Positions 8,608 to 61,087 of a stretch of DNA of 64,000 bases are shown here, piece after piece. A program made the translations under genes and the position numbers. Source of the DNA: Amoebophrya sp. A120 (Eukaryota > Protista > Dinoflagellata); assembly GCA_905178155.1 (NCBI GenBank), contig CAJINV010000001.1:282344-346343 (forward strand), in the 5' to 3' direction. The first letter of the stretch is position 1. Every line of letters starts with the position of its first letter. The notes below the pieces were generated by a model. That model was not told the origin of the DNA. It saw only the letters and a list, made by a program, of their open reading frames with translations, and did no database searches.

Positions 8608-9483
8608 TCACGCTCCGGCATTCTTCGCATGAGCAAGCGAAGTCTCGCCGCCCTTCTTGTTTACAGCACCACCGCCGTCCCCGTCCTCCGCAAGAATGTA
8701 GGCAAACTTTTTCCCGCAAACGGAATCGCACTGTTGCTCTAACTTCAGGTAGCGCTGCCGCAACAGCTCCTGCTTTTCCATGAAGAGCTGCTTGGCCGCG
8801 TCGGTTTGGTGCGGTAAAATGCCGACGCAGGAGCTCCTGTTGGTGCTACCTTTTGAAACACTTCCGGGAGAAGTGGACGATGTTGACGTCGTATTTTCAT
8901 TGGAAATCTGTCCGCGATCGCTGTATGCCTATGGATTGTAAAAATGTCTGGGTCTGGAAGAATGCTAGACTTGTCATGCAGGTTTTCCATGACGACCCAT
9001 GTGAATGGGATCTGATATGGAGGACATAGCATGACAGATTCTGTGAGAGTTCTATCATGCCTATCGTCCTGCATTAGAAACTGCCGCTCGATTAGGTCAA
9101 AAGTGGACAGTTTTTGGTAATCATGCAGCACAGATTTTTACATGATTCAGATTTAGCATGACAAGTTGCTTTGTTCCAGACCAAGACATTTTTGCATTTG
9201 ATACGCTGGTGTTGACTTTGAAAATGCAATCGAACAATTGCCGCCTCTCTTCCAGTCCCATTTTCTGGACGTTCTCCTGGCATGTTTTCTGACAGTCTAT
9301 TGTGAGGAAAAATGTCCCCACACCAGAGTCAAGATGGAAAATCTTCGCTCGTTCGTTCGTGTGGATCGGCTCTGCCGACCGGGTAGCCCATCGCCTCACA
9401 TACAAATGACCGACGCGAACCCCGTTGCGGGACATACATATGGCCATATGGCCGCACGGAGGGGCCCTAAGCGCTACATACAT
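8608..9483 (-). CDS. Hypothetical protein interrupted by an introner (start uncertain)
   Basis: The frame ...ERRQLFDCIFKVNTS joins AYSDRGQISNE...KQLFMEKQELLRQRYLKLEQQC...AKNAGA* in frame once the 8930-9203 element is spliced out. Confidence 0.45.
8930..9203. mobile_element. Introner family A (274 bp), no clear TSD
   Basis: TIR tatggattgtaaaaatgtctgggtctggaa / ttccagaccaagacatttttgcatttgata. Here it can be read as a GT...AG intron in the minus sense. Confidence 0.85.
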
Positions 9484-9811
9484 AGTTCACCCTAAGCGCC
9501 TACCACTTCGGTCGGGACTGAGTCTACCTGGTCCTGGGGGTTCACAGCGCACTAGCCCTCTTGCTAGCATAAACAGATTGGGTTCTACAAACTGATCTAA
9601 CTCCTTATGACAGTCAGGCCATCTTAAAGGACAAATCAACCAGCTATGGTTGTTCCGCATGACAAGTTTGCTCTCGTAGTGTAATCCTGTTTAGCTAGTA
9701 GTTCCGAAGCATCACAGACGTAGCATATCATGCTCATCTTAGCATCACAAATTCCCAAACACGAAGGGAAAGTGGCTCTTTTGGGGCGTCGCATCATCAT
9801 CATCATCATCA

Positions 9812-10548
9812 TGTAGTGGACACCCGCACCCAGCGCCACAGGTCAAGGATCCCCTCCCCGGGGGGTGGGCGAGGAAGCACTTTCGGCGACCTCAACATAC
9901 AAAAGCCGAGCGCTACCACGGCAAGTCGCCCCAATAAAAGTGCCAACCAGTCGGGAGCTACCCACCACACCTGATCAGTACAGCCCGGCCTGCTAGCCGA
10001 GCGCGACAGCCCAGTATACAGAACGATCCAGGACCCGACCCATTTTACGCCATAAGTATTTGCTCTCACGGAAGAGACGACGCACCCCTTTGGGCTAAGG
10101 GGCGAGACTCTCCCTTAAGCCGCAACCCCACCCGGACAGGGGGGGCTGGACCATTTGTGCCTTCCCTGCGGCCGGCACGGACGAAAAAGGCAAGTGCGCG
10201 GACCGGAGATGCCAAGCGAACCATTGGCCAGTTGTTTGTCACGCTGACTGGCAACCCACCTGGGGCACAGCGACAGCTTAAAGGTTTAGTTTGTGCGTGG
10301 CAGTCTTAGTGCAGCTACTTGACTTATTCTGCAACAGAAGCAAAGGGTGGGAGGGGGGACGGGGATCATAAGCCGGAATCATCATCATCATGTAGTGGAC
10401 ACCCGCCCCCAGCGCCACAGGTCAAGGACCCCCTCCCCGGGGGGTGGGCGAGGAAGCACTTTCGGCAACCTCATCATACAAAAGCCGGGCGCTACCACGG
10501 CAAGTCGCCCCAAGAAAAGTACCAACCAGTCGGGAGCTACCCACCACA
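9812..10548. mobile_element. Pair of 158-bp direct repeats (9812-9969, 10391-10548); retroelement relic
   Basis: Near-identical copies with TGTAGTGG...CCACCACA ends, each preceded by (ATC)n, separated by a 421-bp spacer. No outer TSD or PBS seen. Confidence 0.6.
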
Positions 10549-12177
10549 CCTTTTTTTGGCATGAGATTTGCATGACAGCTCTGGGGTGGGGACGTTTTTA
10601 AATATGACACAGTCCTTCTTTGCGTCAAAGAACTCCCAAACCCGGCCGCGCATTTGCTGCGGGCGCGCAGCGTTCAGCGTGCTTTCCAGCTCAGCGACAT
10701 CCTTCGGGCGGAAATGCTCCATGATAGTGCGACAGAATAATTCCTTCAAGAACAAGATCTGAGGTGTACTACTCTTCAAGCTACATCACCGTGTAGCTTA
10801 CTACTAGTATGTAAGGGCAGCTTCGCGCAGTGCTGGCGCAAGTAAGTGCGAGCTACACGCGCACGAACTGCATTTGTCTTTCCCGCCAGCATGCAAACTC
10901 GAAACTGATGTCACACACTCGCAACACCAGCATCGGTCGGAAATGTGATGTTTTCTTTACTTTGCGCCAAATAATTTCTTTCTTTTTTTCAGCAGACAAC
11001 AGGACTCGGATACTTTCGAACATCACTACAGCCTGAAAAGATCATCGCAGAGCGGGTGCGACATCGAGATCCGCAGAATCATCTGTATGACAATTTTATT
11101 GAAAAAGCTGGCCCCGTTTCCTTTGAAATGGCCTTGGCCCCAAAGGGACAGTAATATTGATATTTTGCACTGTAGCACCACGTTGCGAAGTCCAAGGCAA
11201 TTCAAATTTCTATATGCAAATCCTGCTGAATAGTATATTTGCTAACTATAGTGACAAATAGAAATTGGCTGGACATTAATTGTGCACTGGCGTACGTGCT
11301 AACTGAGTTCCTGCGAGTAAGTGGCTAGATATTTCTCAACAACTTGCATCCAGAATCTGGTGACCAAAAAACACCCAAAAAAGACCAAAAGACGCGTTGT
11401 AGAACTGAGACTGACTCGGGGTCACAGAAACTTGTTTTACCCGTTTTCCTGTTTAAGTCTTTCCTCACATCTCCCACCACCTCAAAATACTTCTCAAGAT
11501 CTAGAAGAATCAAGCTCAAGCGGCTGTCGTCTTCACTAATTACTTCGGCGTTTAAGGTGTGCGTGTGGGTGTGCGGCTGCCCTGCCAGGCCTGGTTGTGG
11601 TCGGGAAAAAGAAGCATGTCAAAAAAATGACTATCAGGGAGTCCGCTAGATGATTCGCGAGGAAAAAAACAAACAAGAAGAAAATCTATCAATCTATCTA
11701 TCTATTGGGCAACTGGGATTTTAGGAACTTTAGGTGATGCGCCCCGCCCCCCTTCGCAGCTCGCTATAAAATTGACGTTCTGCAGACGAAGCTGTTGCCG
11801 TTCTCTCTTTCTGTTTGGAGTGGTGCGAAGACAAAAGCAATCATAAAGCGAAGATCTCCGAAAAATAAACTACTTCTCCCGCTCTTGCTTTCTATTTCTG
11901 ATGATATCTCCTCCGTTGTTTTCTTAGTTTTTCGCTTTTCCTCATTCTTCTGTCGCAGGTGATCTTCGGACGGTATGGCGAGGTTGATTTTAATTTTTCT
12001 CAAATTCTGTTGGTCACGAACTTGCAGAGAGACATCAAATACCTTCAGGCTTTTTCGAATACCGTGGTAAGTGCAATCCTGCTGAGATCGACGTCACGAC
12101 TTTCCTTACCTTTGGTGGTACTAGAGGCGGGAGGTTTCCTTGTGCCTCCGTGTGTAGCATTTTGTTACTTTGTCCAA

Positions 12178-23917: not shown

Positions 23918-26900
23918 TCATTTCCCTTTCGCGTGCTTCCCTGCTGGTGTTTGGTGAAACAGTGTGTACTTCGCCGTCAAGCTCTTGTTTCCGTCCGGGT
24001 TGCACATCACCGGCGTCTTCATCGGCAACTTGTCCGACGCGATGTGCACGGGCTTGAAAAAGCCGCCGAACATCTTGATGATAGCCGCCTCCTGCTTGTC
24101 TTCCGCCTTGTCTACCTGTGCTGGGAGATCCGGAATGGCCACCTCCACCAGCACCTTGCTGAAGATGAGAATGTGCTCCCCAACTATATCGAATGTAAAA
24201 ATGTCTGGGTCTGGAAAAGTGGAACTTGTAATGCGTGTAATGCATTCCTGGAAAACCTGTGTTGCATGAGCAGCAAAAGAGAGGCTTTCTTTGTCACGCA
24301 AAAAATGCGTGCTAGGCATCAGCAGGCGTCTCAAAAACTTGTCATGCTTGGCTGCCATTGGAAGCGCTTCAATCATGCGCAATTCAGCATCACAAGTTTC
24401 CAGACCCAGACATTTTTGCATTTGATAAACTAGAAACGCCAGCAACTTGTGCTCGGTTTCCCAGTCCCGGAAGGGCTTCATCGCGAACACGCCGAGCCCC
24501 GCGTTCACGATCATGGCCATGGTCGCGATGGCGGCGAAAATGCTCTGCCACGCGCCAATGCTTTCCGCGCCGGAAGGGTAGACCCGCTGCACGACGTGGA
24601 GCTGTCGGTAGGCGATTATGCGGTACTCGATCATGTTGCTGGCCAGGGCGAGCATGGTCAGAATCGGGAGGACGACACTGAAGCAGGTGACCTGACAATT
24701 TATTTTTGGGAGTGAGTGCTATCGCTTATACGATGCAGACGTGACTGTTCTTCTTACTAGTCTGAACCTGAAGATGAATTGTTCCGGGACCGTACGGAGC
24801 GAAGAACGGTAAATGAATAATGAAAGGAGAAAAGCCTAAATCTGAGATACCATCGCAAACTGCACGGTGAGTTCCATGTAATCGTTGAGCATGTCGGAAG
24901 AAACGAAGTCGTCCAACTTCGCTTGCACTTGCAGATAGGTGTAGTTCGCCCCGTCCACTCCCGGCTTCCTCACTTCCTGGTGCACGAGCAGCCGCGTCAT
25001 CACGATGCGCTTGATCAGCATTGCGCCCGTGACCGCCATGTGTACAAGAAAGAACGTCGTCAAGCAAGTTTCCAACGCTAGGATGCAGCTGCCGCCCGGC
25101 CCGGAGCACCCTTCTACGTACTCTTTTGCGAACGCGACGTAGAGAAACGGGTACATGGCGTTGAAAAATTTCACCATCACGACTTTGAAAACCAGGGAGC
25201 TCTGGTACCTCAGGTTTTGTTTCATGGAGTACAGCTACAGTGCCCGTCAAGGAGCGAACAAGTACTTAAACGACCAACACAGACACACAGACGTGCCACC
25301 ACACCATGACATCAGTGACACAAAGCCTTTAAACTAACCTGCTTTCTGTCTTGTGGTTTTCCCTTTCGGTGACTACGACTGCTATTTTTCCCCAGGCCAT
25401 GTCGAGCGCCTTCACCTGCATGGTAATGAGTACCGCGCCGAGTTTCGCGCCCATCTTTATCGCGAACTCGCGGTCGTCCGTCATTTTTATGATGAAGGCC
25501 GTGATTGGGTTATCGCTTGGGTGGTGCACCATCACGTAGCGCACGGACTGGATCACTGCAATACCGCCGATAATGCACGCCAGGAAGGTGCTCATCACGG
25601 AAGCACCCAGAGCGCTCCACCACGTCGCCTTACGGTCGGCGTCGTCTGTTTATTCAGCATCAGGATCAGGACGACGTGCAGGTGCACAACTACATGTACA
25701 TTATGGTACAGATAGCATACGCAAACCAATCAAAAACGTATAAATGTTTCTTGGCGTAAAAATGTCATACCGTGATCTCTATATCCGGATCTTATGCTTG
25801 CCACGTTGTCGTAGTTTCGCGTGCCCCAGACGGTCGCCTGGATGATAGCTTGTCGATTGTAGTTTTCACAGAACTGCGCGGCCCAGAGCGCCATGAAGAG
25901 GCAGAAGCAGTCTTGGATCATCCTGCAATTTTAGTGTTTCAACATGCAGAAATTTTCTTGTTGCTAAGTACTCAGTAAAGTTGTAGGACATCCCACCAGC
26001 GGACGAACCAGATTTAAAACAAACATCCAACGTCCGAAGCAACTCTCTTCACCTTTGTGTTTCCATGTCCAGTCCGAAGAAGCGTCGCGCGAAGAGAATC
26101 AAAGCCACCAACGTTGGCACGACCAGTTGCACGGTGTAAAAGCGGAACCAGTGGAAGAAAAAGGCCATTTCCTCGCCGAAGTAGTCCTTGGCCTCATCGA
26201 TCCGGTGCGAAGGAAACCGCCAGAAGCTCCACCTGTGCCCAAAATTCGTGACCGGGTCTTCCAGCATTGCCACGTCTTTGTATTTGTGGGCCACAAACTT
26301 TTTGATCATCACCCCGAACCGCTCCATGGCGTTGGTGTCGATAAAATGCCCAATTCGTCGTCGCATCATGCGGAGCTTGTCGATCTCGCGGAAATCTTCG
26401 TAGTACGCATCGTTTTCCAGCTCATACCTTTTTGATGATTCGGAGCCCTTTTTGATTTAGATTATCATACAAACTCAGTCTGTGTGGCTTCTCATCATTC
26501 ATCATCAAACGCAAAAAAAAAGAAACGACTCCAGGCAATTATACGTCGTCCAACCCGGCACCGGCACGGGCCCCTGCCCGTCGTTGACGTGTGGGACCAG
26601 CATCTTCCCGTCCTCCCCGACGCTATCTCGAGCGGTGCCTACTGGGTATGCGCTGGCGCGAAGCGCAGCCCGGTATCCCTCCGAGTTTGCTATCAGCTTT
26701 ATCAATTCCGATCGGCGATCGGTACCGATGCAGTAAAACAGCTCATCGTTATCCGCACCTGGGAAGTTTTTATTTGAGGTTGAGTCGGCTTTTCACGGGC
26801 TAATTGTCCATCTAGTACTAGAACCATCGAACATGGCATGAAAAAACTCCTGTCAGTACTTAACGTCGTGTTCACTGTGAGGCCGATTCTGTTTCCGGTG

Positions 26901-27892
26901 AGCAAGTCCATTGCGCGCTCCATGATTTTGGTGTGGAACTCCAGCCGGGTCATGTCTTTCTGGAAATCCACGGTCAAGCGGTCCCGGCTGGTTGGCAATT
27001 CGTGCTCGTTGGCCTTGGGTCGCTGGGCTACGAAAATCTCCTTGGCCATGTTCAAACAGTCCTTGGCCTTGTACACGTCGTCCCAGCCGTACGCTACCCG
27101 GTCGCACTTCGGTAGGTCCGCCTTCGTCTGCGGCTTCGCCTGTTGCCGCAATAGAGCTTTATCGAAAGGAAAAATCCCCCCTCCCCATATCAAAACGGAA
27201 TTTCTGATGCTGGATTTGTGTACACAGATCAGGTTTGTATTGCAGAGAGGCACTGCGGCCAAATCCCCAGGCACGTTAGGGGCGTATAGGTGTAGTTGTT
27301 CAGCATGGCAAGCGGGTCACTTTTAGGGGCAACAGCATGACAGATCGCTTCCATAGTGGGGCGGAAGCTTCTGCCCTTGTCTTCTGGCAATACAGATGTG
27401 ATTTGCGACCTCAAATCAGCAACACAAATTTTCGGAAACATACCATTTCGATATGGGGAGGGGGGATTTTTCCTTACAATAAGCTTCCTCCGAAGTTTTC
27501 AACGGGAAAATCCAGACGTAGTCGCCCAGATATCCAAGAAAAAAACGTTGTAGGTGTAACTTTTTTGGAGGAACAGCATTACAAAGTTGTCTGGTATGAC
27601 AGCAAAAACCTGTCATGCGCAGATAGTACTCGAAAACGCCCTTTAGTGGACCCTACGATGCATGCCAAGCATGACAGACGCAATCATCTTGCATGTTGCG
27701 CATCACAAATTTCCACTAACATACAACGTTTTTTCTCTTGGATACCAGGTCGTCGTCGTTCACCACTTCGACCCCCAAAACATTTATCTTCTCCCGACCG
27801 CGCTCGGCTTTCAGCAGCGGCTGGATGTCCCGCTCGTTGCCACTCTGGGAGGGCAGCGGGCTCTTGCCCGCCGGATCCTCCGGGGCCGGCAT
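23918..27892 (-). CDS. Anoctamin/TMEM16 family protein, multi-exon
   Basis: Motifs KDYFGEEMAFFFHWF, ENHKTESRYQSSLVFK, DYMELTVQF, LALASNMIEYR...AESIGAW and EHILIFSKVLVEVAIPD. Several GT-AG introns plus three introners. Confidence 0.9.
24187..24427. mobile_element. Introner family A (241 bp), TSD aacta
   Basis: Family A TIR; aacta at 24182-24186 and 24428-24432. Removal gives AFLV-GEHILIF in frame. Confidence 0.92.
27160..27481. mobile_element. Introner family B (322 bp), TSD agctt
   Basis: TIR tatcgaaaggaaaaatccccc..ccccatat / atatgggg..gggatttttccttacaata. Removal gives TSEEA-LLRQQAK. Confidence 0.92.
27531..27744. mobile_element. Introner family G (214 bp), TSD ccaga/ccagg
   Basis: TIR tatccaagaaaaaaacgttgta / tacaacgttttttctcttggata. 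Removal gives DDDLG-DYVWIFP. Confidence 0.9.
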
Positions 27893-28520
27893 ATGGTCGT
27901 GTCAGGTCGGGAAACCTCCTAACGCGGACAAGTAGAAAGAGATCCCTGTGATAGGTGAAGCGGGCTCAAGTTGAGGGGAGAGAGATTTACTTTGGTGGAA
28001 AACCGAAGTGACACAGGATTTTATCGCTCTTTGTGTAGCAGCTTCTTCTCATACGCGTGGTGGCACTACGTCCTCCTCCTACCTCTTCCTCACAAAAGTA
28101 AGCTCTCAACACCTCTGGACATTGACGATAGATGCCCTGTGTCTTACGTCGCAGCAAGAAACTGCTCCTCACTCCAGCTCCAGTAGCACTTTCAGTCACC
28201 AGCACCCTGTAACAGAAAGAGAAACCAGTACTGAACCTCAAAAACAGTCATCCTTTTCCTTCCCGCCAAGACTGCGCAGTAAAACAAGTGGACCGTCGTT
28301 CCGAAAAACGTACTTAGCCCCCAGGATTTGCTTGAAGGTACTCAGTTACAACCCTCGGGCAAGTGAATGAATGCGAGCAGCTCCTGGACGAGAGGACCGA
28401 TGAAGCAGGAAATGGAAACCGGCAACCGCACTGCAATTATGGCGGATACATAGTGTTCATTTACGAAACAGGAGGACCACGCCATCGGCCGCGGGGGCAG
28501 GATGAAGTAGTTCTACTTAG

Positions 28521-28860
28521 ATTCTATGTACTTTCGCACCCTCGTCACTCTATCCTCCGTATTTTTTTGCTTTTACTGTATGGCGTTCTCAAACGTTACA
28601 TTCTCAACTGTTACATGAAATTTGTAATGCAAGAATGGCAAAGTGAAAGGGAAAACATTGCGCCTTTTGCATTACAGGTGTGGAGCAGATTATAATGCTA
28701 TCTAGCGCATCGAGAGGTTGTCATGCGGAGAAGGCTTGATCGTGTTAAGAGTGGTAGTGTTTTTGCATGACAAATCATGTAACAGTTGAGAATGTAACAT
28801 TTGAGAACGCCATATACTGTCCTCGTCGGATTTCATCACGTTGAAGATTTCAGAGATTGG
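28521..28860 (-). pseudogene. Duplicate of the Psf3 3' end carrying a family D introner
   Basis: Matches 30631-30990 except for the inserted element. Confidence 0.75.
28579..28814. mobile_element. Introner family D (236 bp), TSD tactg
   Basis: TIR tatggcgttctcaaacgttacattctcaactgttacatg / catgtaacagttgagaatgtaacatttgagaacgccata. Confidence 0.92.
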
Positions 28861-29380: not shown

Positions 29381-29664
29381 AGCGAAACCAATGCAGCCAG
29401 GGGCACCAGGGTGCCGGCAGGTGGGATTCACGAAGTTGATCAAAGATCATCTCTGGCATCATCTAGAAGGACCGGGTCGCAGAAATTAAAACTCAAAAGT
29501 ATGCCTTGTGGTGCACCTGTTGTTCAGTTTTGTCAGAGACAATCATGCCTATGCGACCAATCACAGTTCCGGCGACACCACGTTCACACATAAGGAGCTA
29601 TTCTCCCAGCACATCTAAAGTCCCCTGTTCTCAACTCCCGGGTGGGTAGTTGTTGGGAAAGACT

Positions 29665-29733
29665 CTCGTCACTCTATCCTCCGTATTTTTTTGCTCTTAC
29701 TGTCCTCGTCGGATTTCATCACGTTGAATATTT
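29665..29733 (-). pseudogene. Introner-free copy of the Psf3 last codons
   Basis: Encodes IFNVMKSDEDSKSKKIRRIE* uninterrupted, with a single cttactg site. Confidence 0.85.
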
Positions 29734-30100
29734 GGTCATCGGCCTCTCCAACCCGTCCATCCGCGGCCGACCAAATCGGACCGAGATCGCGATCTCGGGA
29801 CGATTTGGACAACGGCCTCTCCAACCCGTCCATCCGCGGCCGACCAAATCGGCTCGAGACCGCGATCTTGGGACGATTTGGCCATCGGCCTCTCCAACCC
29901 GTCCACCCGCGGCCGACCAAATCGGCTCGAGATCGCGATCTGGGGACGATTTGGTCATCGGCCTCTCCAACCCGTCCACCCGCGGCCGACCAAATCGGCT
30001 CGAGGCCGCGATCTCGGGACGATTTGGTCAGCAGCCCCACCAAACCGGCTCGAGAACGCGACCTCACGCCGATTTGGTCGCCCTCTCCAACCCGGCCCGA
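29731..30100. repeat. 73-bp tandem repeat (4 full copies, then degenerate)
   Basis: tttgg starts at 29731, 29804, 29877, 29950 and 30023. Units contain gatttggtc/gaccaaatc inverted motifs. Confidence 0.9.
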
Positions 30101-30657: not shown

Positions 30658-31787
30658 TCACTCTATCCTCCGTATTTTTTTGCTCTTGCTATCAAAAGTA
30701 AAAATCCCTGGATGTCTGGAAACTTGTGATGCTGGGTGGCGTCTCATGATGAGGCTACAAATCCTGACTCAGCATGACAAGTTTCTGAGCTCCTAGGTGT
30801 TGCCTGTTCTGCATGACAAACTGCGCTTCTGCATCACAGAAAAACGGAGCTCTTAGGTAACGTGCATGACAGATGTAAGAGTCATGCCAGACAAGCATGA
30901 CAAACATGAATTCTTCCAGACCCAGACATTTTTACAGTTGATACTTACTGTCCTCGTCGGATTTCATCACGTTGAATATTTCAGTGATGGCCAGTTCTGC
31001 CTCGCGAATCCCGAAAAACAGGTTTTCCTCCACGTACGTGAGCATTTGCACGTACAATGGATCCACGTGCTCCGCCACGCCCTTGCGCCCGAGCATGGTG
31101 ATCGTCGCATTCCATCTTGCTTTCGCGGCGCTGAAGAGCTGGTTGCGCAGCCGCGGCCACGCCATTCGTTCCACATCCAGGGGAAGCTGCACGTTGTATC
31201 GATGGAACCTGAAAATGAAGTATTAATTTGTATCAGTTACGACAACATGCTGCATTAAGTCTTAGTTCCTCAAAAATCAACGAAGCAACCAATAACCTAT
31301 CTATGCCCCACCGCAACTAAGTTCTTGTGACGTAGATGAAAACATATCAATCTATCAATTCACAAACACACTGCTTCTATCTATACACGAACGCCATCCT
31401 TGACCCGATTTCGAAGTAGAAGGGCGAAAAATTCCGCAGGTGGACTTTGGACGGGTCACTCGCGAGACTGTACACGAGCGAGTCGCAGTACTGGTTCGGC
31501 GCTTCGAATTGTACTGTCCCCTTGATTTGCCCCGTCGCGGCGTCCGTCTGCGTCAGTCCGATGAGCGCTTGCGCGAGCCAGAAAGGTAGCTTCAGCTTCG
31601 TCCCCGCGGGCAAGGTGAGCTCTTCCGCACTCCCGGTGGTCCGTTGCGCCATGCCGACGCCTTCTAGGAGGTGTGCCGCATGGTACAGAGGGTGATTCGT
31701 TTCGCAGGGAATCAACTCCTCCTCGCTTATTAGCTCCTCCAGATCCCAGTAGTCGCGGCAGGGCGAGTACAAGGAATGCTGCGCCAT
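30658..31787 (-). CDS. PSF3: GINS complex subunit Psf3
   Basis: DYWDLEELISEEELIPC, LPAGTKLKLPFWLAQAL, LASDPSKVHLRNFSPFYFEIG and LTYVEENLF. One GT-AG intron (~31385-31209) and one introner near the stop. Confidence 0.88.
30690..30943. mobile_element. Introner family A (254 bp), TSD cttgc/cttac
   Basis: Reverse-orientation relative of 44899-45150. Removal gives DSK-SKKIRRIE*, identical to the empty copy at 29665. Confidence 0.92.
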
Positions 31788-33045: not shown

Positions 33046-36000
33046 CTACATTCGCCTTTTCGGTGGTGAGATATTACCATCTCCGCCTTCAAAACGCGAA
33101 CCCTTGACGGACAGATTCACCTGTACCGGTCGTTTCTTGGTCGCGTTCACGGGAAAATTCCACTGGCCGGTCGCCGTTCCCCGCGGCGGACTCAACACCG
33201 AGGACTCTTCCATCGCCAAACAGGGCAGCGACTTCTTCGCGGCACTCACCGCGGCCATCACCTCGCCGGCCGACGGCTTTCGCATTTTGCGGATGTGGTA
33301 GTGTTATGCATTGCAAAAGTATCGTACTCGTATAAATGCATTACAAATTCCCTCAGCATGAAAAGCAAAATTTGTCATGCGGATTTACCTTAAGAAAGAA
33401 ACTTGTAATGCATGACTGCAATTACTACGAATACGATACTTTTGCACAGGATAAGTGTTCCTTCATCCCCGCGGCGAGTAAGGCGGACAAAGTGCTCCCG
33501 CCGATAGTAGTACTACCGGGCGGCCCTGATGTTGTTGAACCGTTTCCATTGGCGGAAGAGTTTATCTTCATCCCAGCAGATGAATGATCGCCCAGGGTAG
33601 GCACGACAGACTTCGTCGGCAACTGGTCGCTGTAGTTGGCGACGACATCGCCGGGCGCTACTGTACCTGCTGCAGCCGCGGCGTTGATCAGAATCCCTGC
33701 AGTCGTCGGTGTCGGGTTTCTACTGGTCGTGCTTTTTTGGTTCAAATTCAACATCTCCGATGCTGGTGTTGTGCCAGCAGAGTGGTTGTAGTTGTCTAGA
33801 AAATGTTCCTTCGACGCGTGCTGCAAGTTCGTGAAGACCACGCTGCCTTCCTGCAAAAAATCCCTCTGCTGGGCCGAAACCGTCGGCGGTGTGGCCGTAC
33901 TTGACGTTCCGGGGGCTCGTTCTGAGCGCTTTCTATTGCTAGGTACCGTGGTCGACTCGTCAAATCTTAACATTTGGCTGGGAATGGAGCTCGTGTATTT
34001 ACCATTCCCACCACCACCAGCTGCACCGTTCATAATCCCGCTGGTGCCGTTCCCACTCAGGGGCCGACTGTTCCCGACAATTTCGCCCTGCGTGTTGATG
34101 GCCTCGTCCCGCCGCAGCGTGGACCGGAGCTCTTGGCGCCGCTTCTGGGCCAACTGGGAGATGAACTTCTCGACCGAAAAACCATCCCCAGCAAAATCTG
34201 CCTGCTGCTGCTGGACCTGAGGTTCAGGTTTTGTTATTGATGGGCATGTGGGATTTTTCTAGCTATAAACTTCATCGTTTCAGTTTTTTCTGTTCAAGCT
34301 CATCGAGGTCAAACTGTTCTTACAGGTACAGGTCGTAAAGCAAAACTTGTTCATCATTCAAAGCAATGCTTTACCTGATCCAGTTCCATCTGGTGAATGA
34401 TTTGCTGTTGCGGCTGTGTTGCCCTGGTATGCCTTTTCTGTGCGCGCGCGTTCAGGGAGCGCAGGCTGAGTGGCAAATTGCGAATGGCGTCCTTCACCGG
34501 CGTCGGGCCGGTGTGCATGATTTCCGCAACCGTTTTGCCCTTTTGTCCGCTGGCCGACACTGTGCCGCCCGGCGTGCCGAATTCGCCGGGGAAGTTGCCC
34601 TCGATTTTGGACACTGAAATCGGGACGATGACCGACCCGGAAGCAGAGTGCGTCATGATGGGCGTGGTCAACATTTTCACGGATGTTGAATCAACAGAAT
34701 TCATCTTGTGGGGCGTCGCGGTCGCGTTCACAATCTTCGTCGTCGCCAGACTGTGCGGCATGCCGGCGGGACCGGCGACGCCGGAACTAGCTGGTGCGCT
34801 CGGCCTCTTCGTCGGCGCGTTGGAAAGTCCAACGAGGTCCCGTAGGTCCATATTCTTCTGGTGCTTGTTGAGACGGTCACTAATTACGATCCCAGGGTCG
34901 ATTGACTTGCTCTGCAAGCTACTGCTGGCGAGAGAAATCGATGCGGAGTTTTCTTCTTTGCTATTGCCATCGAGCTGCTGCATTCCACCTGCTGCCGCAC
35001 AGTCAACGCCGGTGTCTGGATGCTGCTGCTGTTCTTGTTGATGCGAAAGCACAACGTCGGGATTCGTCCCGAGCACCTCCATTTCGGATGATTCCTCTGC
35101 ACCAGAATACTGTGGTATTTGTTGATCCGCAGCTTCTGCTCCACTGTCAACAACCACGGCGCCGGAATTATTAGTAAAAACAACCTGTCCTCGCTTCTTC
35201 ACCAGATTGGAAATGTGTTCGTCGGCCGAGCTCGCTGGGTCTGAGTGGATCGCGTTTTGACTCGCGTTTCGCGCAACATCGAGCGCGTTGAACGCGTCGC
35301 TCCCGACCGTGTAGATGTTCGGTCCTAGGTTATTACGGGTAGTTGTTGTAATTCCGTTACGGGTGGACGACACGAGCTTCTTCCCCACAGGCACGATGTT
35401 GCCTATCGTAGTAGTTCTTTGCTGCTGAAGCTGCCGTGTCTGTCGCAACAAGCCCACCGCGCTTGTCGGGTTGCTGGCGGTGTTCTGCTATGCATTGCAA
35501 AAGCATCGCACTGGCAGCAATAGTATAAATTGCATGACAAATTTCGGCAAGAAGGAAAGTGGAACTTGTAATGCTGTTTTGCCCTAGGAGAGATATTTGT
35601 CATGCATATTTGCAATTAGTACGGGTACGATACTTTTGCACAGGATATCTGCTCGTCATCAAACGGCCCGACCGTCTCGCCGTTGTGCCACGTTGGCGGC
35701 GGCACGCCGTTCACGCTGCCATTGAAGGAGACCACCTCCTGCACGATGCCCCCGAGATTCAGACTTGCGAGCAGGTTCTGCGCACTTTGGTTGACGGCAG
35801 CGGTATTTATTGTCGGTTGTTGTCCTCCTCCTCCTCCGAGCACCTGCGCTAAGGGCGTGGTCCCCGCACTGCCCCCGTCGCTGGACGAAACCGCGGCGCT
35901 CAAGGCCGCGTTCGGCGACTCTTCCACGATGGTCACGCCTGTCGGTGGCTGCCCGTCCTGCTCAATCGCTGCCCACACAGGCTGCCTTTGACTCCGCATC

Positions 36001-51409: not shown

Positions 51410-51724
51410 CTTAATATGCGGACGGAGGCAGACGCAGATGAAGTTCTCGTTTTTTTTACATACTGCCAAGCTCTAGTTGTAACCTAAATCCCAAGAAACT
51501 TCTAATGCGTTTTCCTCCTACGAATACGTGGTAGGTACCAGATGCCGACAACAACGAGATGCCAAAAAGCATAGCTTCGGGGGGCGCTCGGTACCAGATG
51601 ACTAACTCCATCTCTATTCGACACGAAACCTCAAACCACCGACGTCGCAAATTCAGATTTTCTTGCGGTTGTCCAGCGCGTGGAGCCACGAAGAAACGAA
51701 CCTCATGCTCATACTCGTCGTCCT

Positions 51725-54700
51725 TCACAACTGCAACATATTAACTCTAAACTTCCCAGAGAAGGAACACTCCGTCTCAACCAGAATCTTGACTACATTC
51801 CAATTTCCCGTGCTCAAGAGCAGCCTCGTCAAGTGCGAGCTACATTGTTCATTTCCTGAGAATGATGCTCCCGATCTACTTGGTGTTCTTGACAAAAGAT
51901 CTACAATCGACCTGTAGGGTGAGCACTGGTGAATAGGTGCGCCCAAATATCCCACAGAAAAAAGCTGGCAGGGCATATTTCTTTGTAATGCAAAAATAAA
52001 TACACAGAAAAATCTGCCATGGGCGGCCTCATAGCATGCTGTTTAGGATACGCAATACAGATTTTCTTGTGTATTTATTTTTGCAATACAAATGTGACCT
52101 GCCAGCTTTTTTCTGTGGGATACCAAAGTGTTGAGCCAGTCGAGTTTGCAGAGCGCATTCTCCCTATCAAACGTAAAAATGTCTGGGTCTAGAAGAATGC
52201 AACTTGTCATACTAAATCTGGAGCATGCAAAAATCAGTGTTGCATGATTACCAAAAGTCGTCCAGTTTTGACCAAGTCGCGAGGGCGTTTTTCATGCAGG
52301 ATAGGCATGAGAGAGATCGCACAGAATCTGTCATGCTAGGTCCTGCATTCCAGACCTCATGGGTCATGGAAAAGCTGCATGACAGAACGCGCATTCTTCC
52401 AGACCCAGACATTTTTACATTCCATACTCCCCGGCGATCAGCATCTCCTTCCACGAGGGTAGTTGAGGCTTTTGTTTCACATTCACTGGGTCTACATTTA
52501 TTGGAGTGGAAGACAATTTGTTTTCACTACGTAGTCGATGGGAGGTAATCCCATCGACAATCTTCCAAGGACGCATGTTGTGGGGGTACCAGAGGGCGAC
52601 CTGACCCCAGTCTATGTAGGGTGACGCAATGGTGTTTATTTTCACCGAAGATACAGTGCTGGTGGTCCCTTGCATGTTCCTATCATTCATCTCATTTTTC
52701 ATTTCTTCGCGTCTCCCCACCCTCGTCCGCAAGGGTGTTGGACCGATTGAAAACGGCGGCTCGAGATGGTCGCTGAGCGACACGGGTACGCAACCGGAAA
52801 AGAACGTTTCATACAGACGCCCGGTGTATGCCGCGAGACCGCGCGGCACCAGGCAGTACTTGCACGTGTCCCCGAGGATCTTTTGATGAATCCTCGTTCC
52901 CATCGGCTGTCCGACATGCAGACCGCCGCTCCCGCTGGTCGAGGCGTGAAGCGCCGCGTGCTGCATGGTCACTCCCTCATACGCCAGCGCGGAAGTAGCC
53001 GCAGTTGGCGTCAGAGCCGCTCTTGAAGATGTGCTGGGAGAGGTTGCTGGTGTCCTCGAATTCATCAGTTTCTCGCGGTTTCGTTCTACTTTTCGGCGTG
53101 TTTTCTTGACTGTGGCTACGTAGTTATCCCATTTTGCAGTCTTGAACTGCAGTTCTTCCACCAGCTCAGACCTCGTCGTTTCGTTCACGGAAACGTACGC
53201 GTTGTTGACTCTGTCACCGAGTTGCCAACCGTGTCTCCCGGTGCGTGCGCGCTGCCCGTGCCAGCAGACAAGCTGCGTCCGATTGGGCCAAACGTAGTTG
53301 CGGTGCTTCAAGTACGCATTCGCCCGGTTATTGTCGACGACCGACGGGACAATGATCGTTGAACCAGCGGATAGAGGAGTTTTTGGTTTTGGTTTTTTCT
53401 CCTGCTTGCTTGCAAGAACATCTTGTTCAACACCAACGCTTATAATTTCTTCATCCCTTCTATTCGCCTTCCCCTCGTCCCCGGTGCGACGGTCGTAGCA
53501 CAAGTCAGTCTCGCAATGAGACAGGTAGTCAAAGAAGCTCTGTGGTGCCAGTGAAACGGTGGTATTCGTTTCCGTCGGCGGCAGCTGCTCTGCTGCGTCT
53601 GCTTTGACAAGCCCTGGCTTGGTGTTATCCAAACTGCTACGAAGAGTTCTTGAAGGTACAAGTACATCATCGACTTGCGGGGGCACAGTAGCAGCTTCCA
53701 TTTTCGTTTCGTCTCCTTCGACCCTTTCCAGCAGATACTGTGCCGCGCTTTCGATAATCTGCACGGTTTCCACCCTCGCCGCTTGCAGCACCGGTCTGCT
53801 CTCCACGGCCAAAATAGTTGCGTCCGACAGCCAGGAGTACCCTTTCAGCCGCGGATCCCCAAATAACGCGGTCCACGCACTGGACGAGAACACCACCACC
53901 GTTTTGTTTAGTTCCGTGAAAATTTTCTCGGTCTTCCCGCGCCGTCGGAACGCTTTTTCCATTTGCAGTCCGCTGAACCGACTGTGCACGTCGATCGCAA
54001 AGTTCTCCGCGCGATCCAAAAACTCCGCGAGGGCGCCGGCATAGTTGACCGGGAGGTCAAACTCTGTAGTTCCACCGGCGTGACCGCCGGGAATCGATAC
54101 CGGCCTCGCAGGGCGAAAAACCGCGGCGTGCCAGGTAGCTTTGGCGCATTCGAGACGCGTTGTCGTGCGTGGACGAGCCTTCATTTTGCTCGTGGTCCTG
54201 TGGGGACCGGGACGGTTCTGTCTTGATGTCCGCCCCGTGGAGTTCCTCGACTGTTCAACGAAGACCTCCTGCGACCGTGGCCGCGCCCGAAGGATTTGGT
54301 TTGCGATGAGGTTCAGTTTTTCCGCGAAGGTTGGAATTGTGTAGAGACGGTCGAAAACATGGACGATAGCAGTATTCTTGCCTTTGTTCTCAACGCGCTT
54401 TATTTCTCCGTCCGGTAGTTTGTTCGCAGACCCAGATCGAACTTCGCCCAACAGCTCGACTCCGCGCAGCCGGACGCGTGTCAGGAACTCTCTTACCGCG
54501 GAATACAGCGCGAAAACGGAAGGTCGCTTCGGCCTCGCCCAGCGCCGAGACACCGCAGCCCGCACGTCTTTCACTTGTTGTGCTGTATGCAAGAGTTCGC
54601 GATGCACGTCGTAGAAGGGGAGAAAGTAGTAGTCTGCTTCCGCCGGGTCCGACACCGTCGTTCCAAATTTATTGTTCACGAGGAACCGATGAAAGTACAC

Positions 54701-56386
54701 ATCCGCCGTGTAGACATTCACCTGCGCAGCCGCCGTCACATAGTCGAATTCCTCGTCCTCTGCGGGGCCAAGCACGTTTTTGTGCACATAAAACTTCGCT
54801 TGCGTCTTTCCCGGAGAGATTTGGAGGGCGGGGCTGGTGCGTGAAGTAGATGTTGTTGTGCCGTCTCCTAGTAACACAGCGAGACCGTGGTCCGCAGGTG
54901 GACCAGGAGCCCCCTGCGCCAGCAACAACTCCCGGGACACGTGCGGAACGCGGCTCCCGGTGGCGAGCAGCACGAGGTAGTCGTAATTCGAATGGTCCAA
55001 GAACAGGTTCCAAAGACAGTCTGTGGCTAGTCGGTCGCGATATTTTCCGGTCACGAGGCGCGCCAAGTACTCCAGTTGTCTCACGCGCGCCCGGCGCTCG
55101 GGCTTACTCACCAGCGGGTGCCGTCCCTCATGTAGTCGGTCCGCACTGGCTCGACGACCCGCGTGGGCGAGGCGCGCGTGAAGCTCGAGCGCGAGGTGTG
55201 AGCGTTCTAGAAACTTCTGTAATTGTCCGGCGGAGCTAGTACTTTTTGGCGGTGATTTTGAAGATGCCGTAGGATCATGATCCGATTGCAACGCTACTAC
55301 ACCAGGCTCCTTCACTGTTTGATTCGTTTTCCACCGTACAGGCGCTGACAGAACTTCCGCCACGGCAGACACATTCCTCGCAAGAAGGTGCGGTCTGCGC
55401 CACAGCGTGCGTTTTCGAAACCGGCGTGCCCGCGCCTGAGTTAGTTTGTCAAGTGCTTCTGCAGACAAAAACAAGAGCTCTGCCGCGGTGGCCTGTGTAG
55501 ACCGCGCCGACTGCTCGTGTTCACTGCGTGGCAAATGGAATAATCCTTGCGACGACGTTGGCTGGGGATTATACTCACCGTCTGGAACTACAGCCGCGTG
55601 TGACTGTGACGAACGTTGTTCTTTTCCTGCCGCAGCATTGTCGTACTTAGGAGGCCAGATCGCGCTACAAAAAGAGTTTGCATTTTGAAGTATTTCCTTT
55701 TCATGGGTCCGTATCCACACCGCAGACGTCTCCGTCTCGTCTCCCGTCGTTGCAGCAGACGCGTGCGCTCTTGTTGACCCTGCGAGGGATCTCTGCCGGA
55801 TACTAGGGACGAGAGTTCTTGAAGAGGCCGCGTTCGGAGATGATGACGGGGAAGAAGTCGGCAACAGGAGACTTTGCTTCACGCGCAACAAGTCCGTATG
55901 CACACGCTGTCGCTGTAGCAGAAGACTCGGTGACTGACAAAAAGAAGAAGTGTCGCGGTTTGGATCGTCCGTTCTTGCAAATGAGTTGAAGCAATTTTGC
56001 GAACCTTCACTGGGTGGACTAACGATGTCTCCACTATCAACATCTTCACCGACGTTTGGGTTTCGGTTTCCGTCCCGGCGACCGACGTAGGCATTCCAGA
56101 ACTGGTCTCGTGCCGCGGCTATAGCTGCCGGACTGCGACCAGGCGTCGCTCCATGAATTCCAATTCCCCGCGTGCCGTCTATTATCTTCCGATACGCAAC
56201 CCACAAAGGGTCGTCCTCACTGGATGAGGGCTCTTCGCGAGTCTCATGCGAGTTCTTTCGGGTAGTGCTTCGTGCGCTTCTGGCCGCAGGGGCCAAAATG
56301 TATATGGTTGAAACAAAAAGAAGTGATGCACGAGGGGGGAGAAGAAACCCAAAAATTCGCAACACAAAACTCCACGGAAGTGCCAT
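51725..56386 (-). CDS. Exostosin-like glycosyltransferase (GT47)
   Basis: Hydrophobic N-terminus; VSDPAEADYYFLPFY; CKYCLVPRGLAAYTGRLYETFFSGCVPVSLSDHLEPPF..IDW. The frame extends to 51725 after removing two introners. Confidence 0.85.
51948..52122. mobile_element. Introner family E (175 bp, almost wholly palindromic), TSD ccaaa
   Basis: Arms tatcccacagaaaaaagctggcagg / cctgccagcttttttctgtgggata extend to about 70 bp. Removal gives WLNTLG-APIHQC. Confidence 0.9.
52165..52426. mobile_element. Introner family A (262 bp), TSD ctccc
   Basis: Close relative of 46178-46439. Removal gives LIAGE-NALCKLD. Confidence 0.92.
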
Positions 56387-56531
56387 CTTCTCCTTCCCTA
56401 GGATCCAAGTATCACCAAGAATTCCTCTTGCAGAAGCAGATTGTCATTGTCAATATTCTTGCGCACTATCATCTCAGAGCTTCTTGGGAAAGCAGATCGT
56501 CTTTGATACCATCTATCAAGATCGGAAACGA

Positions 56532-57387
56532 TTAGGGCGGAAAAATCGGCAAATAGCATCACTTTTGCCAGCGCACTTTTTGGGGGGGTAAAAGATTTTT
56601 TTTGTTGGGGGCGCAACATCTTGGAAGCCGACTCGCCTCGCGTGTCACTTCATCTGTTCCACCGGAAACATGATGGCTGAGCTTTGGAAATGCCGCAACA
56701 CCAGGACCAGAAGCAGGCCACAGCGCCTTCGTTCTGTGCCTTGTCGTTCAGATGGCCGGACGCTTTGTCGTGGGCCCGCTCTTCGAAAAGTGGCCGGGCC
56801 GCCTCCGTGACCGGGGCTTGACGAGGCCCTTCGCCCAGAAAAGGAGGCCCGGCCAGGGGGGGGTGGTCAGGGGGTTGCATTTTTGCCCCTCCCGGACAAC
56901 CCTCCCGGGTACCCCTTCCGGGTACCCTTTCGGTAGCCTATGCCGACCCCCTAATCCCCATTGAAAACTGCCGATTTTGCGTGCCCCAAAATGGTAGCCC
57001 AGAGGCAGCCCAAGCGGACCCCCTTACACCCCCCCTTCGGCACCCCCCCCGGAAGCACTTGACTGCTGGCGCGTCCGCCTTCTCAATATCCGGCCGGAGA
57101 GGGAAGATGAGAAGATATCTGGGCGCGTCCGGAACTGGATGTGGGAGAGGGGGCGCGGCTTCCCGCGCCAGAGGGCCGCAGGCCTGTGCAACTGCAACAA
57201 AGTGCTGTGGTTTTATTTCAAAAAGGGGGGGGCCGGATGGCGGACCGTGGCAACGAAGAGTGGCGCCAGCATCTAAATGGCCAACAGGAAAAAAGCAGTA
57301 GCGACACCCCCAACAGCCATAATTTTTTTGCCCCCCCAAAATGCGCGCTCACAAAAATGATGCTATTTGCCGATTTTTCCGCCCTAA
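56532..57387. mobile_element. MITE-like non-autonomous DNA element (856 bp), 5-bp TSD aacga
   Basis: TIR of about 65 bp: ttagggcggaaaaatcggcaaatagcatca.. / ..tgatgctatttgccgatttttccgccctaa. aacga at 56527-56531 and 57388-57392. Confidence 0.88.
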
Positions 57388-57760
57388 AACGAAAAAAAAC
57401 TTCTTGGGAAACAAGACACGCGGGTGACGTCGAGCAGACTGAAGTGTAAGCGAAGAACGCCAAGCACTTCTAAGAAAAAATGAAAGGAACGCTCTCGCCC
57501 AGGTCGAGCCCCCACAAAAATGAACGCCGACCTCGAGACATAGAGCCCGCCTCAAATTCTAAAGCTGTTGCGAGGTTGTGTCAATGTTCATTCGTGTACA
57601 TTTTAGTGTTCATGATCGGTAACCCCGACGTTTCAAATGCTAGTACTCGCATACTACACCTGGACCTGTTGTAGTAATCATCAGCAGCATTATTTCCCTC
57701 TTCACTATGATTTCATTTGCAACATCGGAGGTCTACTCAACATGTTCTTTAGGACAAACG

Positions 57761-59648
57761 TCAGCTGCCGTCCTTTGGTTGGTTGTCAACCATGAGCTTC
57801 CAGCCGTCCCCGCCCCGCGAAAAGTTCCGCTGCAGGTCCTCCAACTCCTTGGCCCAGCCCAGCTCCTCAGCGAGTTCGCGCACAACGTCGTCACAGCTGC
57901 CTGATAGAAACAGGTCCCGGAAGTTTTTTTCGTGTTCGAACTGGAAACCGCCGGTGCCAAAGTCCTTGCAGGTCCCGACCATCTCGTTATTGATCAAAAC
58001 CCGGGGGGTCTTCAGGTCGCAGTGCGTGATGAGCCGGTTGAAGGGCGCCACCTGCAGGCTGGTACCGAGCACGAGCACGCAGTCGGCAGCTTTGAAGTCC
58101 GCCTTCCGCAGCTGGTGAAAGCGGTCGGGCAGATTTTCGCCGAAAAAGACAATGTCCGGCTTCACCAGCCCATTGCAGGATTCCTCCACGGTCTTGAAGG
58201 CCTCGGGGTTATCGTCCTCCTCCGCATCGGGCGAAGTAGATGTCGGGGGGTTGTTTTCGTCTGTTTGCTGCGCGACAAATTCGAGGTTGCGGATTCGCTT
58301 TTTCACGATGGCGCTACACCTGTATGTACCGATAAATTTTATGAAAATGAAAAAAATGAAAATGATGTATACTCACATCAACTGGTGCCTCCAAACGAGA
58401 AGTTCGGCTCGATGTTTTTTTCGTCGCCAAAATTCCCAAAGAATTATATCAACCGTGTTCAACAACATTCTCGACGATTCGCAAAATCCTATCCCTACCT
58501 TGGCACTATGCCCTTTTCGATATCTTCCCTCCATTTTGTCAGCGACACCTGCGCTCCGCACTCCACACAGTGCACGTCGGCGAAGGACCCGTGCGCGTAG
58601 ACCACTTTTTCGTCCGGCAACCCCGCCTGCTTTTCCAGGGTGTCGATGTTCTGCGTGTACACGCGGCGCAGCAGGTCTTTCTGCAGCAGGAGCTGCAAGA
58701 AAAAGTGCGTGACCGTGGGCGCGAATTTCCCGGGTAGCATTTCCAAGGCCCGCTCGCGGAAAGGCTCCGGGTTTTGCTTAAAGTAGCTGATGTCAAACAG
58801 GGACTCGGGTCGGGACATGCCGTGCTCGCGCCGCAGCTTTTCGTAAAGCCCGTTCTTGCTCCGAAAATCCGGAATCCCGGCGCTGACGGAAATCCCCGCG
58901 CCCGTCATCGCGATATCGTGAGAAAAAAATCCCCCCTCCCCATATTGAAAAGGACACCTGTGATGCTGGATTTGCGTACAGAAATCTACTTGTATTGCTA
59001 GAAGTCCAAGAAGCACAGTTGTGGCCTCAATTTCAGGCAATTTGTCATACTGCTCTCCAGTTCCAGTTGCATCCTGTCATGCTGAAGATGCAAGGCTTTC
59101 TTTCCCACGCAAGCGAGCACTCCAGTCCGCATCTTTTGCTTTCTAGCATGGCAACATGATTTGTGGCCACAAATCATGCTACACAAATCTCCGTTTTAGT
59201 ATGGGCAGAAGGGAATTTTCCTTTTGATACACGACCAGATCCTTCCATAGCCCCTTGCGGATCTTGTCGGCCAGGGTCTTCAGCGATATGTCGTCGTTAA
59301 ACACGGCCGCGCGTTCCTCCTCCGGAATATCAAATGTAAAAATGTCTGGGTCTGGAAGAATGCAAGTTTGTCATGCTTGTCTCACATGACTCCTAAATTT
59401 GTCATGCACATTACCCAAGACCCCCATTTTTCTGTCATGCAGAAACGCAGTTTGTCATGCAGAATAGGCAACACCAAGAAGCTCAGAAACTTGTCATGCT
59501 GAGCCAGCACTTGTAGCCTCCTCATGATACGCCGCCCAGCGTTAGCGTTACAAGTTTCCAGACCCAGACATTTTTGCATTTGATACGGAATCGTGTCATA
59601 CCAGGAGGTGTCCTCTGGTTTTTCAAGTATGAGAAAACTATCGAACAT
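57761..59648 (-). CDS. Sir2-family NAD-dependent deacylase (class I, SIRT2-like); start uncertain
   Basis: VVMTGAGISVSAGIPDFRS, YTQNIDTLE, AHGSF..C..C, KPDIVFFGENLP and GTSLQVAPF. Two introners and one GT-AG intron. Confidence 0.93.
58914..59229. mobile_element. Introner family B (316 bp), TSD cgcga/cacga
   Basis: Removal restores KDLVV-MTGAGIS. Confidence 0.9.
59328..59585. mobile_element. Introner family A (258 bp), TSD cggaa
   Basis: Removal gives WYDTIP-EEERAAVF. Confidence 0.92.
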
Positions 59649-60196
59649 TTTTTCGCCCCAACTGTCACAATCACACTCGATGACTGTGTCTCATTTTGTG
59701 GGATCAATTCGACGCACCATGGTTGAAGATGTGCCGTAGTTTGTTTTCAGTCGAAAAGGTTTGGAGAATTCGTAGGGGGTACAGAATCCGATACGAAACC
59801 GAGAATTCGTGTTGTACAAAAGTATAAGCTATCTCCCAAGTATGTTCAAGTAGCTGTAGTACCAAAGTGCTGCAATACTAGGAATTGCAGGGAGGAATCA
59901 GATCAGATCAGAATATTACCGTTCGGTATGCTCGCACTCGTTGGTTACGGCGGTACAAAAGGAATCTTTAACTTTATCAGTTGTAGCAATTCACGCCTGC
60001 TTCAAGAAGATTCAAAGGGGTGTACGTAGACGACAATAACACGAAAGTGATATTAGGACGACCGATACCGGGCTTTCACTTGGGTTCAATTTGGATGGCC
60101 TGATAATATTTGAAGAGCATGTTCCACGACCGCTATTTTTTTCTAATTCGATCGTGCAGAGAGACGCTTTGCAGAAAGGACTCGAGCAGGGCAGCG

Positions 60197-61087
60197 TCAG
60201 ATTTTTGATTCCATTCTGTCCATGGAAACTCGAAAATTATTCCTTGGTGGCTTCGAGAAGCCCGGCATGCAATGAGCAGGTGAACACGACAGACCAACTC
60301 CATGAAGATTTCGAGACGATCCAAATTGACCGTATGGGCTGCAACAAGAATGATCACTACCTGGACCAAGACGACGACTTCTAGCACAACCAGTAGCAAA
60401 AGTACAAGTTACGCAGCAATTATCTAGATTAGTACTGACAATCGAACTAGGCATGATGCGCCCCTGCCCCGGCACGATGTTCTCACTTTGCAGCCCCTGC
60501 GCGATCGCGCCGATGAGCCGGCGATTCGCCTCGTCGAATGCCTCTTGAAACTGCTGCCACTTCGCGTCCAAATCCGCACTGTATGAGAGTGCACAACTCC
60601 CCTTCGTCCCCCTCATTTGTATGGCATGAACAGCAATACAACCACCAACACAAGAGCAGCCTGCGTATCAATAGATTACGCGCCGAGTGTAATGCATAGT
60701 GCTGCGTATTTGTCATGCAAATCATGCCACAAGGCATCAGCTGGATTTGGGATTTTGCATTACAAATGAGGGGGGGGGTGTGCACTCTCATACACTGGCG
60801 CTCCGGTTTGACCGGTTCACTTTCTGCGCCTCCTGTATGCCCTCCTTTGTCTTGCTCAAATCTGCCAGCATGCTCTGCAGACTGCTGCGCGCCTTGCTCA
60901 CCCGCTCGTCCAAAGACTGGGCCTGCTCCAACGCGTTGCGGGCCGCCTCGGCGCTGCTGGAAGCTGGTGTCGTGCCGCTTCCGCTAGCTTTTTCCTCCTT
61001 AGGAGCTGCGGGTCTGGCAGCGGAGGGGCTGGAGGGAGACGAGCTCCCGGCGAGCAACGCTTTGTCCAGCTGACGTTCGGTAGACAT
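60197..61087 (-). CDS. Hypothetical coiled-coil protein (3' end uncertain)
   Basis: MSTERQLDK...ARNALEQAQSLDERVSKARSSLQSML...NRSAS-ADLDAKWQQFQEAFDEANRRL, in frame after introner removal. Confidence 0.6.
60582..60792. mobile_element. Introner family F (211 bp), TSD cactg
   Basis: TIR tatgagagtgcaca..cccctcatttgta / tacaaatgagggg..tgtgcactctcata. Confidence 0.9.

Follow-up and report, generated by a model that had tools for sequence, protein, structure and literature searches.

Introduction

Introners of the dinoflagellate Amoebophrya sp. A120 are a published system. Farhat et al. (2021; PMC7789003) described RNA-validated non-canonical introns in this strain whose inverted repeats open with TAT, seven variable nucleotides and AAA, with 29,850 repeated copies, inverted repeats of 8–20 nt and direct repeats of 3–5 nt at varied positions; statements about this and the other cited sources hold for the parts of them that were accessible. 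Here we examine a 64,000-nucleotide stretch of the A120 genome (the window), in which an earlier note had pointed out 18 TAT...ATA elements and linked them to introners reported from Amoebophrya. This link is exact, as the window is from A120 itself, and only the rules added here are new. Another Amoebophrya uses GT-AG introns (PMC12005148), and a term search of PMC13326754 returned no mention of the genus.

The window elements resemble the published ones in strain, head, terminal inverted repeats (TIRs), non-canonical ends, support from probable RNA data, a mean length of about 240 nt and the 5-bp repeats of the Fig. S19 legend. They differ from that description in a strictly 5-bp repeat, longer TIRs, a common motif, orientation blindness and an asymmetry at the first T, and while Farhat et al. 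reject general mobilization by transposases, the present data favor it. A 2025 PNAS survey (PMC12130899) labels one A120 family, number 38, 'Ginger, 5-bp TSD, TA/TA termini' (TSD, target-site duplication), whereas its main text describes it as without Ginger termini. This family, about 810 bp long with Copia/Gypsy-like open reading frames (ORFs) and in this unlike the window elements, is the only one with a published candidate enzyme, which is Copia/Gypsy-integrase-like. The other A120 rows are mostly 'unknown', with automated TSD calls of 2–6 bp, and the 50 of 58 A120 rows accessible name neither a common motif nor a single mobilizer.

Two further systems are close. Ginger2/TDD transposons are TIR elements with an integrase-type transposase, and TDD-4 and TDD-5 make 5-bp duplications (PMC2836005); the duplication described here falls within the 4–5 bp of that group, but the ends read TAT rather than TGTNR and no transposase was found here. 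[quoted passage not shown] Those introns keep junction letters (pyrimidine/purine; AG-AC/AT), whereas the target is random here.

We conclude that the window elements are probably A120 non-canonical introners: short, non-coding TIR elements that duplicate 5 bp and are missing, along with one duplicate, from contigs of probable RNA runs, likely mobilized by one integrase-type DDE transposase and likely removed by the spliceosome with the help of the terminal hairpin. To the published system we add a paralogous site that is empty, a duplication that is strictly 5 bp long in a second assembly as well, the randomness of target and orientation, and the internal motif TGTVATGC. Through these rules the mode of movement and splicing of A120 introners becomes testable: the motif can serve as bait for the mobilizing protein and as an easy way to classify elements across the genome, the strict duplication limits the class of enzyme and defines intron borders left vague by annotation, and mismatched repeats allow ordinary RNA reads to locate the true cut.

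Elements of the window

We scanned for elements twice, once by TAT...ATA pairs and once without regard to the letters at the ends. All 18 elements of the earlier note (149–322 nt, GC 0.34–0.48) were recovered at their places, BLAST grouped them in the same seven families (A x7, B x3, C x3, D x2, E, F, G), and the flanking repeats were as counted before: 13 perfect, four with one mismatch (27531, 30690, 38806, 58914) and none at 8930. Restarting the last of these 6 nt further out, at 8924, yields a perfect 5-bp repeat, so that 18 of 18 rather than 17 of 18 carry one. Two elements had been overlooked, one at 9298–10609 (family H), inside the span already described, and one at 56532–57387 that runs TTA...TAA. 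Across the resulting 19 TAT elements, a 5-bp direct repeat stands at every exon/intron border and is perfect in 15. The element at 28579 sits in an incomplete duplicate of the PSF3 tail rather than inside one of the genes shown. The elements and the sites that bear on them are as follows.

8924..9203: family A, in an unnamed minus-strand gene; perfect 5-bp repeat.
9298..10609: family H, in the same gene and enlarged by inserts of about 1 kb; TAT...ACA ends and a perfect 5-bp repeat.
24187..24427: family A, in the anoctamin gene; Pfam positions 429 then 432 across the element.
27160..27481: family B, in the anoctamin gene.
27531..27744: family E; one-mismatch repeat, the mismatch synonymous.
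28579..28814: family D, in the incomplete PSF3 3'-end duplicate.
29696..29702: empty target site in the third copy of the PSF3 3' end, with a single copy of each of the 5-mers doubled at 28579 and 30690.
30690..30943: family A, near the PSF3 gene end; one mismatch, the upstream copy ancestral.
33305..33453: family C, in the TTLL gene.
35489..35647: family C, in the TTLL gene.
38567..38735: family C, in the TTL domain, in the orientation opposite to 33305 and 35489.
38806..39041: family D, in the TTL domain; one mismatch, the upstream copy giving an invariant Gly.
44899..45150: family A, in the CCA-adding enzyme gene; lost with one repeat in an RNA-like contig.
45207..45528: family B, in the CCA-adding enzyme gene; lost with one repeat in an RNA-like contig.
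46178..46439: family A, in the PolyA_pol head domain; RNA-like contigs end at its repeat.
51948..52122: family F, in an unnamed gene.
52165..52426: family A, in an unnamed gene.
56532..57387: TTA...TAA element, intergenic; 62-nt TIR (56 matches), perfect 5-bp repeat, no exact motif and no Pfam match.
58914..59229: family B, in the sirtuin gene; one mismatch, the upstream copy giving Val.
59328..59585: family A, in the sirtuin gene.
60582..60792: family G, in the sirtuin gene, N-terminal part.
8972..60764: range of the internal motif TGTVATGC, 64 exact sites, 62 of them within the 19 TAT elements.

The TIRs, which reach about 53 nt, had been described as dissimilar between families. They nevertheless have parts in common: the head TAT-N7-AAAA occurs in families A, B, C, E, F and H (the pattern of TAT, seven variable nucleotides and at least three A fits all six), D and G keep the TAT with the A run shifted or weak, and the internal motif is common as well. 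Compared with shuffles, all of the 18 elements have the better fold (z from -2.3 to -15.3), 17 of them through a terminal stem. The families are repeated, as seen by BLAST, in the second-assembly loci introduced below and in the 12,740 contigs of run X5 that match the stretch; no Pfam match was found in the long copies, and the elements agree with MITEs in their TIRs, a target duplication of fixed length and the lack of coding capacity. Element length is a multiple of three in 13 of the 20 window elements, an excess that is gone in the second-assembly loci (106:80:101).

The two additional elements have features of their own. The inserts of 9298 (window 9345–10560) include two 158-nt TG...CA direct repeats (9812–9969 and 10391–10548), with a CAT run in front of each of them; this may be a small LTR-like element. 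The TTA element has an A25-type head (TTA, two purines) within the A120 genome, its X5 depth of 236–340 against about 45 suggests a few copies, and its likeness to the published family 38 is one of size; its end was found in 0 of 135 second-assembly loci.

Target-site duplication and insertion pattern

The clearest view of an insertion comes from the 3' end of PSF3, which is present three times in the window (28515–28850, 29664–29731 and 30625–30990). One copy is empty at 29696–29702, the other two hold the family D element at 28579 and the family A element at 30690, inserted two bases apart, and each filled copy doubles five letters found once in the empty copy; this demonstrates a 5-bp duplication. 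Two copies hit by different elements two bases apart may also mark an insertion hot spot.

Scanning a metagenome collection with the A-family end returned at least 135 loci (623 kb), of which the 78 listed are JACKZZ01 contigs; these may stem from A120 or from another lineage. Such loci hold families A–G at up to 96% identity, with TAT at both ends in 214 of 237 end pairs. When 381 end pairs were called without regard to repeats, 240 proved to have perfect 5-bp repeats and 47 had four of five letters, while there were six repeats at 3 bp, five at 4 bp and none at 6–7 bp; the remaining 94 pairs, not individually inspected, include mispaired ends. Together with the empty PSF3 site, these pairs support the 5-nt duplication that had been proposed from the window. 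Family A copies of 972 nt (L038:6001-6972) and 697 nt (L070:765-1461) also have perfect 5-bp repeats and carry captured internal DNA. The A-family end had 0 matches in viral contigs.

Codon use allowed a strand call in 177 of 274 scored elements. Target letters are unbiased in these 177, and orientation is even in the 119 elements that could be assigned; of the two largest subfamilies, one has 13:13 and the other 27:25. A preference for G before TAT, which the window seemed to show (10 of 19), vanished in the loci (48 of 177).

A shared internal motif

The 6,486 nt of elements contain 62 sites of TGTVATGC and the other 57,514 nt contain two, the window total of 64 comparing with 6 in shuffles. 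The motif, whose wider consensus is AAAYYTGTVATGCW, is present in 19 of 19 TAT elements, and so in all TAT families, and is absent from the TTA element. Its outer copy usually reads inward, 33–46 nt from each element end, and the commonest spacing between copies is 31–33 nt (families A, B, C, E and F); the Rayleigh p values obtained for helical spacing depend on a single mode and on copies that are not independent. In the loci the motif occurs in 277 of 283 repeat-flanked elements, and in 32 of the 34 that resemble none of the window families. Unmasked duplicates inflate the density that the motif has in the loci outside elements, and this density was left aside. TGTVATGC does not occur in the text searched of Amoebophrya and introner papers, where figure logos (S19–S25) and further supplements could show it.

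The motif could act in RNA, as a branch point or splicing-protein site under splicing selection, with the families descending from several unrelated transposons. The branch-point consensus is UnAC, and the motif, read as GCAUBACA, contains a sequence like it 33–45 nt from the end. The 2025 table, moreover, puts some A120 families in Mutator, Ginger and non-LTR classes (PMC12130899). Yet the motif has no strand bias in the loci (292:267), exact GCATBACA is missing from the transcribed strand in 35 of 177 elements, the outer copies are kept equally at 5' and 3' (106 v 92), and the head and the 5-bp rule are common to the families. We consider a signal in RNA improbable, and a branch-point role of the motif, tried as a candidate, is unsupported. 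Strand symmetry and the 35 elements without the required sense make a site in DNA the simpler reading: the motif is likely a subterminal protein-binding site, putatively, and most simply, for the transposase. There is a precedent in Emigrant/Lemi1, where a transposase binds repeated subterminal motifs besides the TIR (PMC1636448); that is a Pogo-like plant element and not an intron, and binding of the motif here is putative.

Two GT-AG introns of the window (46530–46719 and 25650–25800) carry one-mismatch copies of the motif and, unless these copies are there by chance, may be old introners turned canonical.

Loss of elements with one repeat

Deletion of an element with 5 nt restores reading frames and the motifs DVTNLR, MHLTNY, DGLVRL and VVMTGAG, which reproduces the restoration of core enzyme motifs reported before. 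The annotated A120 protein P0001 matches the sirtuin exon at 100% and runs through 60582, 59328 and 58914 joined exactly, with element and 5 nt removed. Across 38806 and 38567, Pfam positions are continuous, from 139 to 161 after a 21-residue exon. Homologues also show which repeat copy stays, and for ten elements left of 43800, and likewise for 9298, this question rests on them. In TTL homologues (the 115 pattern-matching of 120 listed), Gly stands at the 38806 mismatch in 115 of 115 and the 17-residue spacing is kept in 114 of 115; in sirtuin homologues, the residue at the 58914 mismatch is Val in 77 and Ala in 0 of 110. In all three informative window cases, then, the upstream repeat holds the conserved or ancestral letter (38806 Gly, 58914 Val, 30690 the empty-site base). 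Removal of the element with 2 nt, which keeps the frame and is suggested by the NT-AN motifs of Table S4, was rejected: it would put the contig piece ends elsewhere and add a residue that neither P0001 nor the TTL homologues have.

To follow the elements in other data, we compared 43800–63500 with contigs of X1 and X2 (guessed to be RNA, one sample), of X5 (unlabeled, behaving as DNA) and with X9 (raw RNA). Six of eight covered elements are absent from the RNA-like contigs, two of them (44899 and 45207) provably as element plus one repeat. X1 record 1 aligns to 43800–44893 and 45529–46172 with 51 letters between, and since 635 - 257 - 327 = 51, both elements were lost with exactly one repeat each. 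X1 and X2 pieces end at the repeats of 46178 and of 60582. An X1 contig of 1310 nt (depth 52, assigned to position 59647 by its depth) is too short to contain 58914 or 59328, as keeping either would require at least 1501 nt. X5 contigs, by comparison, extend 23–40 nt into element ends at flank depth, which places the elements in the DNA. In X9 (2026), five reads aligned, from another strain or the host, and are uninformative. The exact removal at the RNA level that the earlier note had inferred is thus supported by X1/X2 contigs, which are likely RNA runs, and by P0001.

The same contigs speak to a loss at the DNA level, by elimination of the kind known in ciliates, or to dead genes whose element-free copies are expressed. 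X1 and X2 are not on record as RNA, which leaves room for this idea. However, a GT-AG intron is likewise skipped in them, with pieces ending at 58317; their depth differs by gene and is about 0 between genes, their exon letters show 0 differences, X5 contigs reach into the ends of elements at the depth of the flanks, and published validation used RNA sequencing (PMC7789003). Either form of this idea is already largely refuted, and we regard it as very remote.

Some details of the sirtuin gene (57764–61087, minus strand) stand apart. At its N-terminus it carries a coiled-coil section that A25 and other relatives have as well. The RNA-like contigs cover the sirtuin part at a depth of about 52 but the front part at 8, and one contig enters the long intron; both hint at a second start near 59717. 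In a short stretch at 59915–59945, DNA and RNA-like contigs break or diverge from the window, suggesting repeated sequence inside an intron; it has no Rfam match.

Splice register and the position of the cut

That no GT-AG register gives exact removal had been enumerated for 44899 and 46178. This extends to 20 of 20 elements: with six equivalent cut positions and both strands considered, none offers a GT-AG, GC-AG or AT-AC register, and U2-type GT/GC-AG ends are found in 0 of 20. In the loci, 11 of 177 elements have a canonical register, against 16 expected by chance. With six of eight covered elements absent from contigs whose RNA status is guessed, removal from transcripts probably takes place at sites other than GT-AG.

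Among 186 coding-confident elements, the first T was altered 0 times at 5' ends and its partner seven times at 3' ends (p 0.016, post hoc). Both this asymmetry and the upstream-letter cases fit an intron that starts at TAT or one base before it. NT also opens each of the nine commonest A120 motifs of Table S4, which may be an aligner convention. The would-be +1 and -1 letters show no covariation (p 0.07).

Removal without the spliceosome, by an endonuclease that recognizes the hairpin and a ligase, or by a repeat-guided jump, with the cut sliding within the 5-nt repeat, would account for the lack both of splice signals and of a co-opted AG/GT in the target, and for orientation-blind insertion. 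U1 snRNA is also undetected in A120, and the synonymous repeat mismatches given below favor it. Against this stand a first T that only the 5' ends preserve, in the manner of a donor's U+2, the ancestral or conserved letter in the upstream repeat in all three informative cases, and a nearly full A120 spliceosome, including U1 proteins; in tunicates, MITE-derived non-canonical introns are spliced by the spliceosome (PMC11282704). We judge such removal unlikely, though a more serious contender than a signal in RNA, and prefer spliceosomal removal assisted by the hairpin. Under that preferred mechanism, the TIR hairpin would bring the exon ends together in either orientation, and the element's first T would provide a relaxed 5' splice site (N/TAT) with its U, opposite a 3' site without fixed letters.

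A proposed single mobilizing enzyme and the weight of the evidence

The earlier note had proposed one transposase for all families. The common head, motif and 5-bp rule support this, whereas no transposase was found, and a single enzyme behind all families is reasonably inferred rather than demonstrated. Copia integrases make a 5-bp duplication, as do TDD-4 and TDD-5, and the duplication found here fits integrase-type enzymes. The families would then form one superfamily, the motif would be a subterminal binding site, most simply for the transposase, and the enzyme would make a 5-nt staggered cut like those of Copia or TDD-type integrases. More tentatively, and with less than even confidence, all TAT families, which make up most A120 non-canonical introns, may be one superfamily moved by a single integrase-type enzyme that reads helically spaced AAAYYTGTVATGC and not the family TIRs, while the spliceosome uses only the hairpin and one U. 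If true, this would be a licence to insert anywhere in coding DNA in either orientation.

Several points weigh against the reading as a whole. The window, four long copies and 571 long ORFs put through a crude motif screen yielded no transposase, and 64 kb plus 623 kb held no autonomous partner with matching ends; no transposase was found in A120 by Farhat et al. either, who ruled out general mobilization by transposases (PMC7789003). The repeat mismatches are synonymous in 21 of 32 cases, above the 40–47% predicted by a fixed cut (p 0.003–0.015; 0.055 at a 50% expectation), as if both repeat copies reached some mRNAs; third-position mutation bias is a possible alternative. The first-T test was framed on overlapping data and concerns one of three positions, and strands in the loci are inferred from codon-use calls, self-consistent in 35 of 38 loci. 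The contig comparison covers 8 of the 19 TAT elements, with the 11 others outside it and 51948 and 52165 uninformative; X1 and X2, from the same sample and of guessed RNA status, are assembled contigs, which drop rare forms and hold no lariats or read-level joints. Finally, the ends of 38567 are unpaired in its minimum-energy fold, as are the first bases in the folds of three elements.

Other features of the window

A cluster on the minus strand at 39800–40800 comprises a U6 snRNA, a tRNA whose acceptor stem pairs poorly and a signal recognition particle (SRP) RNA. The SRP RNA, first suspected to be the missing U1, matches only model positions 95–253 (no Alu part), and it shares with U6 an upstream 14-nt element about 20 nt before the starts. 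Repeat arrays lie at 1100–2950 (degenerate palindromic units of about 130 bp), 29730–30330 (73-bp units) and 41985–43455 (58-bp units).

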